From positions 835,291-899,290 of the forward strand of contig NMRA01000080.1 of the NCBI GenBank assembly GCA_002633005.1: 64,000 nucleotides of DNA, in the 5' to 3' direction. Each line of letters opens with the position of its first letter. Within the stretch, counting starts at the first letter, position 1. Under the pieces are notes generated by a model. The model did not search any database, was not told where the DNA came from, and was given only the letters and a program-made list of their open reading frames with translations. The DNA is from Phoronis australis. Lineage: Eukaryota > Animalia > Phoronida. Of this stretch, positions 11,723-64,000 are shown piece by piece. Both the position numbers and the translations under genes were made by a program.

Positions 11723-12678
11723 AGGCAATGACCATCGCCTCTGTTGGCCCGACCAGAGGCGATGCAGCTCCTACAGGGGCTCCGTACGCCGGAAGCTTTT
11801 TGGCGAATTATGCCTCGCACTGGCTAAAGCATGAAAGTCACATTGTTATAAATACCTTTTGCGTATAGAGGGACACCTTAGGAGGTTTGGCGGTGTGTTT
11901 AATTCCTTGCAACTGAAACAAATACTTCTGTTATCGAACTTTTTGTTCGAGCAGTCACTCGTTCAGTTCCCAAAATTGTGAACTCACCATTTTTATACTG
12001 CGCACACTCCAATTTTTATCATGCTCGCTAGGTGATGTGACTTCATGACCTCAATCTTTAAATAGGCCAAAGGTGAGCTATTGCGGTCTTGTCAGTCAAA
12101 TGTTCGTTTCCAAAATGCCACCACTACTTGTCTTTAATTGGCGTTACTTGAAACTGATTGTATTTCAATGAACTATTGGTTGTATTTGATAAAAATAAAT
12201 GCTGTTGATATGACATTTAATAGTCTTTGTGCACATATTTGACATTTTAATGTTTAACAACACGGCAAATTCACGGCTGGTTCCTGGCAGCACGTACGCA
12301 AAGGGCGGGGACTGACTTCAGCTTTCAAAGTTCGCCAGTAGGACCGCAACTTCTGACCTTCGGCCTGGTTAAAAGAATGAGGTCATATCTCTTGGTGTGC
12401 GCCGAGTGAAAATGTTGAGTTCACGATTTTGGGAACTGAAATAGGGACTGCTCGAAGAAAAAGCTTGATAACGGGAGTATTTGTTCGAGTTGGAAAGAAT
12501 TAAACACATCGACAACCTCATAAGGTGCTCCTCTATGCGCAAAAGGTATTTATAACAACGTGACTTTGATGCTTTAGTCGGTGCGAGGCATAATTCGCCG
12601 AAAAGCTTCCAGCGTATGGAGCGCCTATAGGAGCTGCATCGCCTCTGGTCGGGCCAACAGAGGCGATAGTTATTGCCT
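11723..12678. mobile_element. Foldback/MITE-like element with ~290 bp inverted repeats
   Basis: 11723-12012 is the reverse complement of ~12391-12678. Each arm has an internal hairpin ATCGCCTCTG..CAGAGGCGAT, and 32-bp direct repeats flank the element. Confidence 0.8.
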
Positions 12679-31826: not shown

Positions 31827-54172
<22,346 letters not shown>

Positions 54173-57100
54173 GTTAAAGATGTTACCCTCTTAACCAAGA
54201 GCTTTTTGTTTTTCACATCAGCGATGGAAATTTGGTGGAAGGCTGGGTCTTGCAGAAATGAAAATCGATTTCTGTCATTAGTCACCGGCTACAGTTTCAC
54301 GATGTTGAAAAAGAAAATAATCAAATATGCAAAAATAGTTTAATTATCACAATAAATATTTCATTATATAAATGACATACGAGGCTTACTACGAATCGAT
54401 TTAGATTATAAAACAATATGTTTGAAATAAGATATTATTATTTGCCTGTGTAAAAACTAGGAAGTGGAAATGCTCAGTTAAAATATTACATTCGATAAAA
54501 TTTTTTTTGCAGTTGACAACATTTTGTTAAATCATCGTAGATATACGCTTAAAACGAGAACTGACAAATTCAAAGGAAAATATGTTCACGAAAACAGTGA
54601 ATTTCAATCGTTTTTTAAAATGTTGTTAGTTGATGACACTTTCTCGCAAGACGTCGCTTTGCAACGCTGTACAATGAGCTAACCAATGAGCTATAGTTGT
54701 ATCGGCTGCACTGACGAGTTGGGCGGGAGTTCAGTTGGCACGTTCAGTAACGCTAAGACTCACGCAGTGGAGGATTTAGAGGGGGCCAAAGGGGCCATGC
54801 CTCCCTCAAATTCTCCCACACTCTGTTTAGCAGTTCGGGGGTGCGAATGTCTGACGAGCAAAATCCAGCTAATACTCTCGCCGTGGGCGGCCCCCAATGA
54901 CTGAGTAGTCCGAAACTCCTGGGTCCCGGCCCCCTGCCACGCTTGGACCTAGCTAAAATCTATTCAATTGAAGTCAAGTGTTCTTATTGAAGATACTAGA
55001 ATCGGCAATATCTCACGGAATCTCGTGATGTCTTGCTTTTTAGCGAGGTCCTAGCGCTACTGAACGGGATTGGCAGGACTAGGTTAGGCCCCTATGGTCG
55101 GAGACGAGATGGCAATGAACGAGAAGTTGACTGATCTTTTTTTGAAATTTGGAACTAAAGGAAAAATGCTTTGGCATTTATAAAAATTTAAAATCTCAAA
55201 CCGTACTTTTTGATGAAGTTGGCGACCGTGACATCAGTTTCCATTGCCGGCAGGGACTCACTTGACTCTGATTCTGCTTGATGTTCTATAGTTTAAAAAA
55301 GCAACACAGTTAACAGGTACTATAAGGCTGAGCGCCTCACTTGTATTTTGAAAATCACTTCATTCATGCTCAAACATTTAACAGTGTTCATTAATTATTG
55401 ATGTGCATTGCTGTTGGCGTATTGCCGGGTAGGCTAGGCCTACGTGCAAACTTTACTCCGTCGCTTGTGCCTCCGGGGCCACACTGAACTGCTGTACCAG
55501 CAGGGCCATGATATTGTTGACGGCCCTGGTTAAACACACCGGGAGTATTTTAATTTGAAGCTTTCACTGGGAATGCGATCACCGGGATGTCCTCGATTCT
55601 CGCCCTCATAAGTGGTTTGTCGGCGTGAACCGTGCATCAGTAACTGTCAGTACTTAATCCCGGCACGATGGCGGTGACTTTTTATGTGATTTTCGTACGG
55701 AAGTTGACTTTTTATGGAATTTCTCTGCGGAATGAGGGTGACTTTTTAAATTTTTCTACCGAATCACATTTTTTTCTATAGGTCTCTTCGAAGGTACAGA
55801 TCATGGTTAATTTACAGAAGACACTAGAAAAATATCGACTCTCAGATATCCAAAGAAATGCTATGGTCTTAAAGTCCAATACAGGCATTCCTAATGCTTG
55901 CATGTTTAGTATTCCTAGACAATACAATATTTTGCCTAAACTTAGGGAAATTGCGCAGTTGGATCTTCATTTTCTTTCTTCCACACTTTTAAAGAGGGCA
56001 AACTTGTAGTTGGACATTCAGAAAATGTGTCTCAGAGCTTTTGGCGTTGTGTCGGAAAGCACAAGCCTCTCTCGACCTCGTTGGAAATACGGCCAAATAG
56101 GTGTACAAATAGCGTGAGCTCAGGTATCATCAGGAAATGACTTAGCACGGAAACAGGTGATTATTCAAGGTACACATGAGTCCTGAGACTAAATAACAAC
56201 ATGTGAAAGGAGTGAAATAAGAAATCACAGGTTTCCTGACAACTGAATCGTGTAGTAAATCTAATGTGACTGTCTCTCAATCTGCTCAGGCATAGCCTAG
56301 GACATAGTAAATATAGGTGTCAACCATTTTTGTTCTAACCGTAGCAAACCATGACGAAAACAGTCAAAATATTGTCAAGTGTCAAAATGCATTGCATGTA
56401 CCAAGTTACCTATTTGAGGCTCTTACATCTATCATTATACTGAACTCATTTGGCCCTGTCGAGCAAGGCTGGTGAAATGAGATTATTTCGACAAAAGAGA
56501 TTGCCCGGAAAAGCCGTAAATATTCATTTACGTGTGTAGTAAAAACCAAAGCGAAGGTCTGAAGACTTTGAACATCGGCAAAAAGCGTATTAATTACCGA
56601 AAATACATAGCCTTGGCAATACGCCGTAGCATTACAGAAACGCATTATTACGCAAATATGTTATTCCCGTATTGATTGACATTTATGTAGTAATGAAGAG
56701 TCAAAGACAAAGAATTTTCAACGAATATAGACGCCATTTGTGTATTGAGCACTGCAAAGTTGAATTATACCAAGGGCCTAGACATTTTAGCAGTTTAAAA
56801 ATGAAGCACAGACTATTTATAAACTTTTTCTTCCAATACAATGTTCAAATTCTTCCCTTAGTACATGTAATGTATATGTGCGCCTGCGCTCAAGGAAATC
56901 GACTCGCTGCTGCATGAAATCGGTTAATGCCCAAAACTTTTAAGGCTGACATGAATAATTCATCAGATTTTTAATGAAATTTCATGAATTGTGGACTATC
57001 TAAATGAGATTACAGTGCTTAAAATCACCAAGCTAAATACAAGGTGGGACAGCACAGGTTAGAATCATTCAAAAATACGCATGCTCCTCTGTTTCCTGGA

Positions 57101-58243
57101 TAGAAACTATTTGACCAAATTTATGAAATTTCATCAAAGAAATCAAATTATAGAAAGCGCAGCCATGGGGGACAGCAGTAATCAAATCATCAAAAAATTC
57201 GTGTGACGTCGGCCATTGTCATAACCATAGAAATGTATTTGCAAAAATTAATGAAGACCCTCGATGAGGTTCACGAGCTACAAATGCCGACTGTCCGTTT
57301 TCAAGGGTTGTAAAATACGAGTTGGTGTGTCCTTTCCATTGCCTGTTGCTTGAAAATAATAAAAAGCCCACATTTTTAATTTTTCATTTCCTTAGTCACA
57401 CAGAAAACTGTTAAGGAAATATTGTCTGAAATCATCAGCATCTCGCAAACTGGACTCCGAAGCACCTCAGAAATGGCTTAACATTAAAATAGGCATAATT
57501 TAACGCATTTTGTCGCTCCAATTGAGGTTAAAGGTAGCTGCAAAGATTGTCATACGCCGCGACGAAGGGAAATATGTCCGTGTAAAATTTATAACTTTTC
57601 GAATCATAATTTGTCGCATCTCGGACTGGATGCCGCCATAGCCAACGAGGACCGGAGAATCTTCAGTCGGCTAGCCAGGCTGTGTTTTCATGACTATGAG
57701 TTGGAGCGCGATGCATTTTTCTTTACAAAAAGGACAGGGCCCTCAATCCCTCAATTTTGGGGCCAAATATCGGCCCTATTCCCCTCTCAAAAATATTGAA
57801 AATCCCCTTTGTGATTGAAAATTTCTCTCCAACGATTCAAATCACCTGTGACCACAGAGGTGACAATTTGAAAAATTACAAAATCATAGGCAGATTGAGG
57901 GGGGGGNNNNNNNGACAGATTTCCTGAGCAGAAGGTATACATCCTCGGCGACCGCAACTTCCGGGCCGCCTGCATGCATACAATCGCGCTTTGCCCGCTT
58001 CTGCAAGGATGTCGGGCCTCCCCTTATGGTATCCTAGATCAGCCACTGAAAATGCTACTTGAGACAGAGCTATGAGAGCTTACAACAGGGCGGGGTGCTA
58101 TTGATGGTGATCGGCAGGTCAGTAGATTTTTCACTGACCCGTCACTCGGTGAAACGTTCCCCTCTCAGAAGGCCGCACAGGCACCTTTCCCCTCACCGGA
58201 ATGTGAACGAGACCTCTGAAGAAACATGATAACTATGCTTGTT

Positions 58244-58404
58244 CCAGGGGGGATCCAGGACTTTGAGTTGGGGGGGCAAGGCAGAGTATTAGCCAGGATT
58301 TTGCCCGTCAGAAATTCGCGCTCCTGAACTGCCAAATGGAATTTGGGAGAATTTCAGGGGGGCCTGGGGCATAGCCCCTTGGCTCCCCTATAAATCCGCC
58401 ACTG
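58244..58404. mobile_element. Short degenerate MITE (CAGTGGCGGAT-type end)
   Basis: CAGGGGGGATCC...ATCCGCCACTG. Related ends at ~54765 (CAGTGGAGGATTTAGAGGGGGCCAA) and ~58035-58048. Confidence 0.45.
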
Positions 58405-59518
58405 TGTTCTGTCCAGTTAACTGAAATTGAGCTCTAAAACGAGGTTATGCTTTGGACGAAAGAATTAGGTGTTTGTAATTTTAAAATTCAACTTGGTCGA
58501 GATTGATATTTGTACATGAAATAAACGTAATTATTAAAACCAAGAAAGCAGAATTGATGGTCATATATTTTTTTTTTCTGTTGTGATCCTAGTTTTTATC
58601 GTAATCAAAATATATATTTAATAATATCAAGTATTATTTCAGATCAATGACAAATCAACTGTTAGTCCCGGTAGTGCCTACCTCACCAGGAATTAGGCTA
58701 TGCTTGAAGCTAATAGGCCTACTCTTGATCAGCAAATTAAACCAGATGAGACTAATTGCACATGACAGCAAAATGCTATGAGCCACCACTGTCGAATATA
58801 CCTTCAACTCGTCAATAATACGACCAGATGACCTGGTTCGTGTAGAAAGCATTTTTATCAAGAATTTATTAGAAGAAACGTAACACTGCATGCGTTCACT
58901 TATTACCTAATCCGTAACACTACGATCGCCGCAATTAGGTCATGTTTACTTTTCATGGTTTCGAACCTAGTTTTCCGGAAAAAAGCCTATATCCTTTCGC
59001 CAGACAACTCTTTGGTGCATTGACTTGTTCTTTAATTGTATTTTTCTACGTCTCTGTGGTTAATTATTGACATTTTTTAAGATTTAATATTCAGGTTGGA
59101 CTCCAATTAAGACCGGCCATTTAACTTAGCTTTGTTTATCGCAGTGAGCTTCGCTTTGGATTTTAATGTCCGCCGCGTGAATAGAGTCTATACAGCTATA
59201 CGTGTGCTGTGTTAATGACCGAGGCACACAGAAGCGATCTGACAGGTAAATGAAGCTCAAAGTGAATTCATAAGTCATCACTGAATGGTCTCCCCCACCC
59301 TCCGTCTCCCTGAGACCTTTTGTGTTGGTTTAGCTCCATCGAGCTCATCGAAATGAACCTGTTCGTTTGGTACGCATGCTGGGAACCTAAGTCCATATTT
59401 GGTTTGCGCTCAGCGGGACTTCACAGCACATAACTATATGGTGGGAGTGGCCTAACTGTGTTTGTCAGCACTGCCCATTGATTGCATCTAATAGAACATA
59501 GAGTGCGCCAAGTCTCTT

Positions 59519-59547
59519 GTCACGTGACTTTTGAATTTCCCGCCAAT
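59519..59547. promoter_or_regulatory. Compact promoter-like motif cluster (E-box palindrome, CHR-like, E2F-like, CCAAT)
   Basis: GTCACGTGAC-TTTTGAA-TTTCCCGCC-AAT in 29 bp. Motif match only. Confidence 0.4.
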
Positions 59548-62500
59548 GATATTCAACTGAATGTAGCTATTCGAACCTGAGAACTACTGCTATTGAGACA
59601 AGAGAGACGTGCGATTATTAATATATACGAAACGTTATTACTACTACAACGAGAACTATTATATATTGTGTGGAGTACCAGAACAAGTGAGAATCTGTCT
59701 CTCAAAGAGACCATATCATCTCCTGTGGATCCATCACCATGTAAGTACTCTGCTTTTATAACATGTGTTAAGTCCACGCTATTTTTTTGAAAACTACTAT
59801 CCGGCAAACACTACAAAAATCACAACGTTGCTCAGGTCGTACCTTCTTGGAAAGGGTCGTTTGGGATGTGACTCTCAACAACTGTTCATTTGGATGAGCA
59901 AAAAAATTGGACATGGATTGACAAAGATGAGCAACGAGTTCAATTAAGTGAGAGTTTTGAAATGTGTAGTTGCATGAGGATTCTTTGTACGTTTGTGATA
60001 AATTTATTTGTCTTTATATTTTTCATACCATTATTAACTCGTTCGGCAACACTTCAAAATGGGATGAGCCAATTAATGTTTTTAAACCCCGAACGCTCCG
60101 CAATTCAACATTGACAGCTAAAAGTTGGAGTTAGTATCAAGAAGCAACGTTGTTAGTTATAGCTGTGTAGTTGAAACGATAGACTCTCTTTCAAACTATT
60201 AACGGTAGTAGGTTACATTTTTTATTTCAGTTTCTTTCAGTAAGTATCTTAGATTAACCAACAGCCGTCAAAGAACGTGCAAAAATATCCTCATGTACTT
60301 TCATTCTATTTAAGCATAATGTTATTACTCTGTTAATTAACCTTAAAAGGTTATGTTGCCTTTATGAAGGATGAAGGACCTTTTGTGAAATTTGGCGTAT
60401 TTTACTTATCTGAAATGTACTATCAATCTCTAGCAATCGGCTTTTATAAAAAGATATTAAAGGCACTCCAGGTCAGACCAGACCGCCCAACAAAGTGCTT
60501 CATCACAGGCGAATCGTGAACCAATACAATGCTTTTCAAGTGTTTGGGTGTTTTTGCCGCCATAATGGAAACCATCGTGGAAATTTATTGAAAATCATGT
60601 CTAGAATACTAATTGCCTTTGTTATCGCTGGAGAGATTCAGCATCCTAGATCGAGCTTTAAACAGTCTTATAATGACCCAAGTGTAAGCAACACATGACG
60701 ATTGTTGAACCCCGTTCGTGCTAAAATAAGAATTTAGTGCTCTCAAGTCCAAAATATATTAAACATTAAGCAAAATGCAAAAAATGACGTCCTGTTCAAA
60801 CTTTTTGTAGAGGAAACGATTAAAACAAGAATTAATTCAACGACGTCAAGTCACTGATAACAGATTTCCATTATGATTTTCAATTCGGCGAAAAGGTCAC
60901 ACATGGCAAAATCGTGAATGGACAAAAATGTTTAAATACATCATCTCACGACCATAAGTTATCATTTTTAGTTATAGTCTGTTAATCGTTGTCTGCCATT
61001 TGTAATCGTATGACTGAGATGCTTTCCGGTGGTAAAATCTCTACAACCGTATGCCGTGGACATCATTTACTTTCACTGAAACATGATCAGCAACCATTAC
61101 CATCTCCAAATGCCGTTTTTGGAACCAATTCTTGTTTTCATTGTTCCCTCTGCCTATAATTTTGAACACTTTCAGCCTGTGCTCTATGACATATACCGGT
61201 AATTCAGTTGTTAAGTTCATGGCTAAGCGCACAGTAATTCGCCTAGGTAAAGAGCATAAACTGCTGATAAAAAGTAGCACACTCAAATGTTTAATAATCA
61301 TTGAGCCTACTTGAATTTCTCTGAATCTTGCATCACCCCAATGATATCCCCAGGGCCCCCGCTAGTTAGCGAAAGTGAGAATTTCACAGCCCTGCCTCAA
61401 TGCTTGGTCTCCGATCCTGCCGGCCAGAAAAATACGATTTTCATGATAAAGAAAGCCGGGCACAGAGATCATCTAACATGAAGTCATTACTGATTTTCTA
61501 CTCACTGTACTAGAATTCTTTCCAGAAGTCCGGCTATCGTTTTATTTGTACCTATATAAGCTTTCGTACAAATTAGGTAAAGCTAGTTCAGGAGCGCTAG
61601 GACCTCAATAGCGCTGGTTCCCTGGAAGTCCGCTAGGGGGAAGACGACACTCACGTCATTTGTAAATACAATGTTTACACCAGCGGTTCTGACTGGCTCA
61701 GTGGTCGAATCGTCAAAAGGTAGCGCTTCATATGTAAACAAACGGGCATTGCTGGCGGAGGAAGTACTTATGTGAAATGATACAGTTAGTGGCCTGTTGT
61801 ACGAACAATTCAGGGCGATATGTTCGAGAAATGCGAATCGGAAAGTTAAGGTTGTAACTATGCATTTTTGTAGCCTGTTGGCATTACAGCCTGAGTGTGC
61901 ATTTCGGCAATCGCGATGTCAAGCTCATAACGAACTTCCCACATGTCCCACTCTGACTCAGATAACTCACTGTACTCGGTCTTTCTGAATGAAGTTATGT
62001 ATGATACTGCAGAGAGAAACCTTGGTTCGCAAGGATGTTGACAAGGTTAAAAATCGTTCACAGTTCGTCATTATTTTTTATTTGTTTCAAAACTAACCAA
62101 TGATGAGTAAAGTAACTGTGGACTTGTGGTTAATTGACCATTTTTGTTTTTTTCTTAGGTTTGGATCTTTCTGACCATGGCCGCCTGGCATCAACCACCA
62201 GCCGATCTACTGCATGTATTGATGAACTTCGTTGCATCTACGCTTGCCGTCATCGACTAGTCGCATGTCAATTACATCAAGGAGTAGCACATTCCTGCAT
62301 AATTCAGGATGAACTGAAGTTATGGGAGATGAGTTCTTTTATGTCTACAGTGCTTCATACTCAGATGGGTTCGTAGGCAAGTTCGGTCGATTGCCAACCG
62401 CCCAAATTTACAAATCTTCGCATTTAAATGCTCACACTTTACCTGATGCCCAAATTCAATTGTAACAATTCCTTGAGAGTTTCCTAAAATTGTCAGTGTC

Positions 62501-62789
62501 TAAGTGTCGGTGCCAGTTTGCCAAAAAAATTAGTTCTCAAAACAAACGCATTTTGTTCACCTTTAGGTAACTCGTATTGCCATGTAAATTTTGCAGTTCA
62601 CAACCGTGAAACACCCGAAGTAGTTTGGCAGATGAACAGAGAATTCATGGTCATAACCGCTAATTCTGTCATCACGTCGGGGAATTCCAGGTCGTTCTGG
62701 TTGATCACTGTGGTGTGTACTGTGCCGTCCGCATGTCAGCTGTCCATGTACCAGCGAATGTCCATACATCGAAGATTGCTGTCTAATCT

Positions 62790-64000
62790 CTGAATATCGA
62801 CTGTCCGTGCGTTGGTGCCTTGGATCGACTGTTCGCATATCAGCCATCCACTTCCCGAGGAATGTCCACACATTGAAGTTCACCATCTACTGTCTGCATA
62901 TCGAACATTCACGTATCAATGGAACATCCAAACATCGAGGATTGGCATCTTCTGTTCACAAACTGATTGTTCACGCATCAATGTCTGCTATCAGCCGTTC
63001 GCATATCGATTATCCACTCATTGAGTAGCATTCCCACATTAAGGATTGTCATCTGCCGTTTGCGTGTCAACCATCCACACATAGAGGAACATCCACATAT
63101 CCAGGATTGCCATCGACTGTTCGCATATCGGCTACCCACACATTGCAGAACTTCCATACATTCGAGGATTGCCCTCTACTGTCTCTGTGTCGACCATCCA
63201 CATATCGAGAAATGTCCATGTATTGAGGATAGCCATCTTCTGTACACATGTTAGCCATCCACATGTCGATAGGTGTCCACTCATCGAGGATGACCTTCTA
63301 CTGTCTACAAACCACCTGTTCATGCAACGATGTCTGCCCTCGGTTGTCAGCATTTCGATCTTCTTCACATCAAGGAATGTTCACACATCTAGGATCTTCA
63401 ACTCCCATCCTCCTGCTGATCATGTTTCCACTGATGCACGCCCTTGATCATATGCATATTGACTGTCCTCCCACCGGGACAGTCAATATGCATATGGTCA
63501 ATAGACTGTACGTATAATGACTGTCCCGGTGGGGGGACAGTCAATATACGTACGGTGGATGGCAGGCATCAGTGGACACATGATCGGTAGGTTAATGGTA
63601 GTTGAGGGTTCTAGCTGTGTGAATGTTCCATGATGTGTGGAAGGTTGTTATGCAGATGGCCGATGGTAGATGTTGTTGTGTGAACAGTTGGTTTGTAGCC
63701 AGTAGATGGTGAACCTTGACGAGTGGATGTTTATCGGTGTGAGGGTAGTTGACATTTGTACAGAGGATGGCGATCCTCGATGCATGGACATTTCTCGGTA
63801 TGGGGAAGGTTGACATATAGATAGTGGACGTCAATCCTTGAATGAATGGATGTTCCACGATATGTGGGCTGTCGGTATGCAAACAGTTGATTGGTAATCT
63901 TGGATATGGGATGTTCCACTATGTGTCTATGGTTGGCATGCGAACAGCAGATGACAGTTCTTGATGCGAGGATGTTTCTTGGTGTTTGGAAGATCGACAT
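62790..64000 (+). ncRNA. Candidate long hairpin RNA / foldback locus (right arm truncated by window end)
   Basis: 63003-63437 pairs with 63566-64000 at roughly 75% identity with almost no indels. Arms are built from degenerate ~33/65-nt subrepeats (CCATCCACAT..GAGGA). Mismatches favour G-U on the + strand, and the centre has two hairpins. The inverted repeat is certain; the RNA function is inferred. Confidence 0.55.

Follow-up and report, generated by a model that had tools for sequence, protein, structure and literature searches.

Why do the two arms of a long inverted repeat, at the right-hand end of our window (the whole stretch of 64,000 nt of DNA analysed here), differ so often by changes that leave a G·U pair and so seldom by changes that leave an A·C pair when the + strand is folded upon itself? 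A preliminary description, made from the letters alone, had taken the arms for a dsRNA stem under selection, labelled the locus a candidate endo-siRNA hairpin of the Drosophila type, and supposed that it might silence the repeat family from which its subrepeats came. Here, we find that the data speak best for selection on the duplex formed by the + strand, although such selection is not proven.

The features of the locus are collected in Table 1. Its stem is as the preliminary description had outlined it, with two corrections: the stem reaches inwards as far as the four-nucleotide loop, and the array of subrepeats begins to the left of the point from which that description started. The right arm leaves the window, and in at least one genomic copy it is prolonged past 64000, as the loose end of a contig behind 63994 corresponds to the reverse complement of 62979-63008 in 24 of 30 letters (compared by eye). 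We would expect the partner of the left extension at approximately 64001-64410; if the right arm mirrors the start of the left one, it would end near 64280-64410 and the stem would measure about 800-900 bp.

Table 1. Features of the inverted repeat and of its surroundings (positions in the window)
Feature	Position	Strand	Basis and remarks
Left arm with partner in the window	63003..63499	+	alignment columns n=498
Right arm, cut off by the window end	63504..64000	+	alignment
Terminal loop, 4 nt, symmetry centre	63500..63503	+	repeat search, fold
Inner left segment, strongest bias	63163..63408	+	partner 63595-63840; 37 G·U : 2 A·C, indels 0
Inner right segment	63595..63840	+	partner 63163-63408
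Left extension of the family	62586..63002	+	subrepeats from ~62724; multi-copy; transcribed on the hairpin's strand
Array of degenerate ~61-nt units and 43-nt partial units	62724..63424	+	spacings 61, 104, 166
Small hairpin (ear 1), stem ~26 bp	63444..63501	+	local fold -41.1 kcal/mol; alternative to rod tip
Small hairpin (ear 2), inverted copy of ear 1	63502..63559	+	repeat search, fold
Upstream transcribed segment, lower copy number	62130..62281	+	RNA on the hairpin's strand; degenerate unit 62213-62274 (E 0.0043)

The units of the array are about 60% alike to one another, whereas units that are partners across the axis are 70-80% alike, which suggests that the array predates the inversion. 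A profile of the unit matched the + strand at 62724-63424 and the - strand at 63579-64000, with a weak copy at 62213-62274, and a non-repetitive segment sits inside the array. Since the period is 61 nt, which is not divisible by 3, a coding reading of the open frame in the left arm is disfavoured; Pfam found nothing in eight ORFs, including this frame of 120 aa, and two protein word searches were likewise empty. Among structured RNAs, Rfam gave seven matches with E up to 1 over 54000-64000, none of them at the gathering score and no ribozyme, the best being MIR5284 on the central palindrome (46.4 of 93 bits). No tRNA was called by ARAGORN. The two ears at 63444-63559 are near-perfect hairpins of pre-miRNA size that mirror each other, with weak, sub-threshold Rfam miRNA matches; in Capitella, according to the available text of PMC8915122, many miRNA hairpins are bulge-free and have tight loops. 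The predicted energy of the tip is -132.6 kcal/mol for the rod and -126.8 kcal/mol for the form branched with both ears, i.e., the branched form lies 5.8 above the rod.

The pairing of the arms was assessed by aligning 62600-63501 globally, under neutral scoring, with the reverse complement of 63502-64000; this gave 498 paired columns from 63003 inward. The whole visible stem holds 379 Watson-Crick pairs, 64 G·U pairs, 16 A·C pairs, 39 transversion mismatches and two 1-nt gaps, and the ratio of 64:16 departs strongly from equality (binomial p 5.9e-8). Its inner 246 columns, free of gaps, consist of 186 Watson-Crick pairs, 37 G·U (15%), 2 A·C and 21 transversion mismatches; the 37:2 without indels that had been counted by hand was therefore reproduced by a computed alignment, with a binomial p of 2.8e-9. 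The outer split of 18:9 (left of 63163) also came out as counted before and is not significant alone (p 0.12), and neither is the innermost part beyond 63408, which the hand count had omitted (9:5, p 0.42). The bias is uneven along the stem: the inner segment differs from the rest (p 0.0016), and an equally extreme window of 246 pairs arose in 1 of 300 permutations.

As controls we took the 22 other inverted alignments of at least 60 nt in the window, among which overlaps are possible. Together they give 302 G·U : 344 A·C, and both the inner segment (Fisher p 4e-10) and the whole stem (p 1e-8) differ from them. The main control is an inverted duplication of about 30 kb (1254-29884, centre near 12200) that contains two head-to-head SLC3A1/maltase-like (GH13) gene copies and whose arms are mostly 77-91% identical. 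The preliminary description had used a foldback at 11723 as its near-even control; this foldback (at about 11720) is the centre of the gene duplication and gives 15:8 over 288 nt (p 0.21). In a head-to-head duplication any transcription-linked strand bias cancels, so an explanation by such a bias escapes testing by this control.

Folding of both strands, for which a much more stable + strand had been expected, bore out that expectation: the + strand forms one rod of -679.5 kcal/mol, compared with -526.4 kcal/mol for the - strand. For the inner part the gap in duplex energy amounts to -41 kcal per 100 bp, and seven controls range from -13 to +13. Windows of 21 nt with at most one open pair number 158 of 477 on the + strand and 12 of 477 on the - strand, and uninterrupted helices on the + strand are up to 30 bp long.

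The consensus of the units allowed us to polarise the changes at the 51 of 64 G·U sites that lie within the unit alignment. The left arm shows 10 A>G and 14 C>T changes and the right arm 10 of each, with seven sites left unpolarised. Contigs of other family copies agree with this polarisation at eight G·U sites among the 21 best-supported family differences listed within the stem (the window copy having changed by C>T at five and by A>G at three); all but one of these eight fall in the inner segment, and A·C sites of the same kind among those listed number none inside it and three outside. At three of the 21 listed differences (63306, 63342 and 63381) the window has a Watson-Crick pair, and the family letter would give A·C with the window's partner, a pattern that fits compensation or the repair of A·C pairs. 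Among the polarised sites, 11 C>T changes stand before G, which looked like a strong CpG contrast; counted by columns without polarity, the contrast did not reach significance (12:7, p 0.36; controls 65:65; inner segment 6:1), and we place no weight on it.

Transversion mismatches are not rare in the stem (21 of 246 inner columns vs 506 of about 9550 control columns) and so escape the purging seen for A·C, and the total ratio of transitions to transversions does not differ from that of the controls (p 0.18). The inner ratio of A·C to transversions, 2:21, is compatible with the 1:4 expected at mutation-selection balance (p 0.29) but not with the 344:506 of young neutral repeats (p 0.002). The abundance of transversions fits a stem near mutation-selection balance, and a directional mutation bias as well.

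Such a bias, strand-specific deamination, had already been named in the preliminary description as the alternative to selection. Here it would take the form of neutral decay in which the non-template strand (the + strand), exposed in transcription, gains C>T and A>G changes that mimic the preservation of wobble pairs. We regard this as improbable, the present data having weakened it. Given transcription of the + strand it predicts the direction correctly, both mutation types occur in both arms, the unchanged transition:transversion ratio agrees with it, and the coding strand of the genes in the window does carry a T-over-A skew (T/A 1.15 in the + copy and 0.87 in the - copy). This gene skew, however, implies a weak bias, and the probability of at least 37 out of 39 is 0.001 at a bias of 3:1 and 0.03 at 5:1. 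Biases of 3:1 to 5:1 suit the count over the whole stem (p 0.18-0.83) but not its unevenness along the stem, as a strand-wide bias would be even.

A mutation bias does not predict a deficit of indels either, and such a deficit is present. The stem has 2 gap openings per 119 mismatches, in comparison to 133 per 1152 in the inverted controls, from which 13.7 would be expected (Fisher p 5.6e-4); direct-repeat controls have 37 per 345. Indels in the stem are about seven times rarer than in the controls.

The hairpin is not a single locus, a fact that the preliminary description had missed. In DNA run X1 the summed contig depth over 62586-64000 is 410-2086 (median 1448), and the two flank haplotypes have about 23 each; the sum is not a copy number and is inflated by the overlap of contigs. 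One contig of 213 nt has a depth of 368, i.e., about 8 diploid equivalents, and we read these data as ten or more copies of the family. Of the six longest hairpin contigs listed, five deviate from the window sequence by about 8-12% and the sixth by 4%. The DNA depth rises near 62510-62640, and part of the upstream flank is likewise above single-copy depth. No second copy of the hairpin was found within the 64-kb window. Motif searches of metagenome, viral and prokaryote collections found no ortholog in another species: a 16-nt motif of the centre gave at least 120 loci in the approximately one third of the metagenome collection covered, none related to the hairpin beyond the motif by BLAST (longest alignment 46 nt), and a degenerate 21-nt motif of the unit gave no viral contigs and three prokaryote contigs, all at chance level by profile and BLAST.

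Transcription was assessed in three of four RNA runs, chosen by species label and belonging to one study; of four DNA runs one (X1) was used, the RNA and the DNA coming from different samples. At 90% likeness the RNA covers the hairpin thinly (depth up to 13), with the first mate nearly always on the - strand; at 82% likeness 426, 376 and 254 reads were placed on 61750-64000. The first mate lies on the - strand in 98, 98 and 90% of the depth over 62586-64000, which in most stranded libraries implies RNA of the + strand; the strandedness of these libraries is given as 'unspecified', and no splice joint gave an independent strand call. The RNA depth of the hairpin peaks at 63574-63801 (51-73 reads in run X5, 37-52 in run X6), and the one-strand coverage of the three runs shows no pile-up of read starts or ends and no splice joint. 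Where the window differs from the family, the RNA carries mostly the family letters (in X5, 22 of 22 at 63252 and 14 of 14 at 63264), so the reads may stem from other copies or alleles. The transcript which the preliminary description had predicted exists at the level of the family, 90-98% one-sided, with its strand read from a library of unspecified type.

Reads also exit the upstream segment 62130-62281 into unit-like sequence, and the element may thus extend further in other copies. A loose end before 62156 was considered as a splice to an upstream exon and rejected: a motif search found no exon, and the loose end resembles 62102-62118 (13 of 17 letters, by eye), i.e., a shorter paralog.

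Over the whole 2251-nt stretch, places with A>G on the + strand number 149, 156 and 146 in the three RNA runs, where the other three transitions average 44-47, the DNA and RNA animals being unmatched. The genomic copies in the DNA run are even across the four transitions (45, 48, 45 and 40), with 45 A>G vs a mean of 44 for the others. The excess of A>G over T>C is significant in each RNA run (Fisher p about 1e-4), and it supports the + strand origin of the RNA independently of the orientation of the mates. At site 63212, the minus-mate RNA reads show G in 18 of 18, 15 of 15 and 15 of 16 cases; the DNA contigs, at a depth of 1691, never show it. Behind 62918, eight X6 reads share a loose end in which, by eye, G replaces 8 of 11 A, a sign that pairing may reach into the left extension. 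ADAR requires double-stranded RNA. The excess of A>G in the RNA, taken together with this requirement, indicates that the duplex forms in cells. Thus, A-to-I editing, proposed earlier as a test of the stem, appears as an A>G count about three times that of the DNA run (at the family level and in unmatched samples), and the results point to a family that is transcribed from the + strand and whose real duplex is edited by ADAR.

Editing raises an explanation of its own, namely that reverse transcription of edited RNA brought the edits into the genome, where they became fixed and left the G·U pairs as fossil edits. We consider it highly improbable, and as a sole cause it is largely refuted. The RNA is indeed heavily edited, sites with G in the window and A in the family (63254, 63273, 63342) are partly read as G in RNA, and the 5' neighbour is A or T at 12 of 20 genomic A>G sites vs 55 of 167 unchanged A (p 0.025). 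However, 24 of the 44 polarised G·U sites are C>T and only 20 are A>G, family contigs confirm the C at 63040, 63252, 63264, 63323 and 63344, and the genomic copies show no A>G excess. Depletion of 5' G is a common signature of ADAR in the available text of PMC5625713, and at the genomic A>G sites it is lacking (6 of 20 vs 57 of 167, p 0.81).

Editing alone implies no function, since transcripts of palindromic transposons are commonly edited and function is not needed for it (PMC5625713, available text). The family might be a foldback DNA transposon that is non-autonomous and carries long modular inverted repeats, and whose transcripts fold and are edited as a by-product; its G·U bias would come from fold-linked mutation or repair, or from selection on the single-stranded hairpin of the element, and not from a benefit to the host. 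We judge this unlikely, though less so than the explanations above. The length of the inverted arms and their division into tandem repeats on the outside and a non-repetitive domain on the inside agree with the anatomy described in the available text of PMC4079207, and the most edited Xenopus repeat is, in the corresponding text of PMC5625713, a palindromic Harbinger family. The multi-copy state, with about 8 diploid equivalents for the 213-nt contig, agrees with a transposon too, and the + strand is the better DNA hairpin as well (-314.0 vs -277.8). Passive read-through of dispersed copies, in contrast, predicts RNA of both orientations, and the reads are 90-98% one-sided. The middle domain of such elements is absent, as the loop has 4 nt, and the arms have diverged by 24%, more than most of the longest copies differ from the window (about 8-12%). 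An arm divergence of 24% is unusual where a transposase must recognise the arms. We know of no repair process that gives 37:2 together with a suppression of indels. The foldback reading is compatible with a selected hairpin family, whose origin may well have been such a transposon.

The host bears on what could become of the duplex. Of the 134 relatives of the SLC3A1-like gene, 20 were looked up; 11 clusters were named, 10 of them with an organism: Owenia, Helobdella, Lingula (2), Tubulanus, Crassostrea, Haliotis, Argonauta and Ruditapes, plus a transcript labelled Ancora sagittata. The latter we take to be a gut parasite of polychaetes, and its transcript may be host contamination. Owenia has the best summed score over all exons, and the identities of the relatives are about 40-50%; a search of the Atlas gave solely bacterial amylase C-terminal domains. 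Judging by these relatives, the host is likely a trochozoan, perhaps an annelid. The available texts report that DICER2 is undetected in Trochozoa and siAGO missing from annelids, molluscs and brachiopods (PMC11114477), that endo-siRNAs are not clearly present in Capitella, where dicing is distributive at most (PMC8915122), and that molluscs are similar, with the fate of long dsRNA in molluscs unresolved (PMC12479628); together they describe annelids and molluscs as having no dedicated endo-siRNA pathway.

For this reason the Drosophila-type endo-siRNA label given to the locus is doubtful, and as it was worded we find it unsupported. In a canonical hpRNA of that type, Dicer-2 would processively dice the stem into phased endo-siRNAs of about 21 nt, which a dedicated siRNA Argonaute would use to silence a related repeat or gene. 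In keeping with it are the transcription of a long inverted repeat, its presence in several copies as in hp-CG4068 and hp70 (PMC10317233, available text), and the unbroken + strand helices of up to 30 bp. Nevertheless, we think it improbable: the named relatives of the window gene are annelid, brachiopod, nemertean and mollusc proteins, the species tested in that clade lack endo-siRNA signatures in the available texts (PMC11114477; PMC8915122; PMC12479628), and heavy editing inhibits the dicing of rncs-1 (PMC3409262, likewise). Within the window, the arms show no homology to a target transcript beyond matches of 15-17 nt. As to the selected dsRNA stem itself, the + strand duplex exists and appears selected, judging from the stranded reads, the A>G excess in RNA, the G·U bias and the suppression of indels; for the supposed silencing role, no target was found in this search.

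The account towards which we lean, as somewhat more probable than its negation, is that of long hairpin RNA genes which form a family of many copies and whose duplex is selected; they would work like rncs-1 or as hairpin RNA without Dicer-2, and possibly derive from a foldback element. A short tandem array of units of about 61 nt would have acquired an inverted copy of itself on the other side of a small palindrome, and the resulting unit would then have been copied to ten or more loci. The three patterns in the arms suggest how the family may be maintained: changes that leave G·U would be tolerated, A·C pairs would be purged or mended by a second transition, and indels would be purged, so that the duplex stays in register. 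The duplex of at least 500 bp could then act as a dedicated substrate of dsRNA-binding enzymes, as does C. elegans rncs-1. Heavy editing of the duplex by ADAR is supported by the RNA data and would be part of this action, and a Dicer of the miRNA type might cut the duplex sparsely into few guide RNAs; only sparse cutting by such an enzyme would be expected because the host clade is reported to be without Dicer-2.

Among known systems, the closest in its working is rncs-1, a dedicated long non-coding stem-loop with A-to-I editing; its stem of about 300 bp yields some small RNAs, and its dicing is inhibited by editing (available texts of PMC3409262 and PMC4408787). Here too the stem is long and the RNA of the folded strand shows clustered A>G, the RNA and DNA coming from different animals. 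The present stem differs in its length of at least 500 bp, its tandem subrepeats, its many copies and a host that is likely a trochozoan and not a nematode, and we claim likeness by working, not homology. With the Drosophila hairpins hp-CG4068 and hp70 it shares transcription of long inverted repeats, which are often in several copies and have arms sometimes derived from transposons (PMC10317233, available text). A transcribed, highly structured inverted repeat is present at the family level, but membership of that class cannot be claimed since the class is defined by Dcr-2-dependent siRNAs of about 21 nt, often with a complementary target (same source), and unlike the fly, the clade of the present host is reported without DICER2.

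Foldback transposons of the Tetris, FB and Galileo type resemble the family in being non-coding and multi-copy and in their long modular arms, which consist of tandem repeats in the outer domain and unique sequence in the inner one (PMC4079207, available text); the missing middle domain, the one-strand wobble bias of the 24% diverged arms and the one-strand transcription set the family apart. The Xenopus Harbinger palindromes are likewise a self-folding multi-copy repeat and a strong ADAR substrate, but the present hairpin is much longer, and its genomic arms bear a signature of maintained pairing of which the available text of PMC5625713 reports none. Finally, in engineered plant G:U hpRNA transgenes the G·U substitutions disrupt the DNA inverted repeat and spare the RNA duplex (PMC9263138, available text); those are artificial and carry C>T on one arm only. 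By analogy, G·U pairs here might be favoured by escape from DNA-level silencing or from the instability of palindromes.

Long edited hairpins, hpRNAs and foldbacks are each known already. In literature covered at the level of titles and beginnings of abstracts, including few subscription papers, no selected and edited long hairpin family in a trochozoan was described; what seems new, in that it did not appear in our searches, is the occurrence, in a lineage from which the siRNA arm is reported missing, of a hairpin that has many copies, is transcribed from one strand and bears a signature of selection. A bolder and more tentative idea, with the chances rather against it, is that a trochozoan keeps an amplified host gene family yielding an in-register, selected RNA duplex of 500-900 bp despite the loss of Dicer-2 and siAGO in its clade. 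If so, long endogenous dsRNA would function outside the canonical siRNA pathway, either in a hairpin-RNA pathway run by the miRNA Dicer and an Argonaute, or through the tuning of ADAR and of dsRNA sensing by an edited duplex; the family might then be a domesticated foldback transposon. The family offers concrete loci at which to ask whether long dsRNA goes to the miRNA Dicer, enters piRNA biogenesis, or stays intact and edited, and the asymmetry of G·U and A·C combined with the indel deficit makes a simple screen for such loci from the genome only. Should the family be no more than a foldback transposon whose transcripts are edited as a by-product, what remains of interest is the unexplained polarity of 37:2.

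Some further features of the window were observed. A very high-copy repeat at 58000-59200 (DNA contig depth 17,500-94,000) is transcribed on both strands, and a short high-copy repeat at 62039-62076 (DNA depth 3,800-5,900 in its bins) has both-strand reads with consistent loose ends. At 39132-41544 there is a direct duplication (spacing about 1.42 kb, 91-100% identity, a single N at 40290), which might reflect either recent tandem copying or an error of the assembly. A small degenerate palindrome at 38523-38819 leans the opposite way to the hairpin, towards the - strand (6 G·U : 14 A·C on +, p 0.12). Several exon-like ORFs of a - strand gene lie at 45440-52490, for which one Pfam scan and one homologue search returned nothing. 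A motif resembling a Pol III A box at 61694-61704 (+) is probably due to chance, as a B box was not found and no tRNA was called there.
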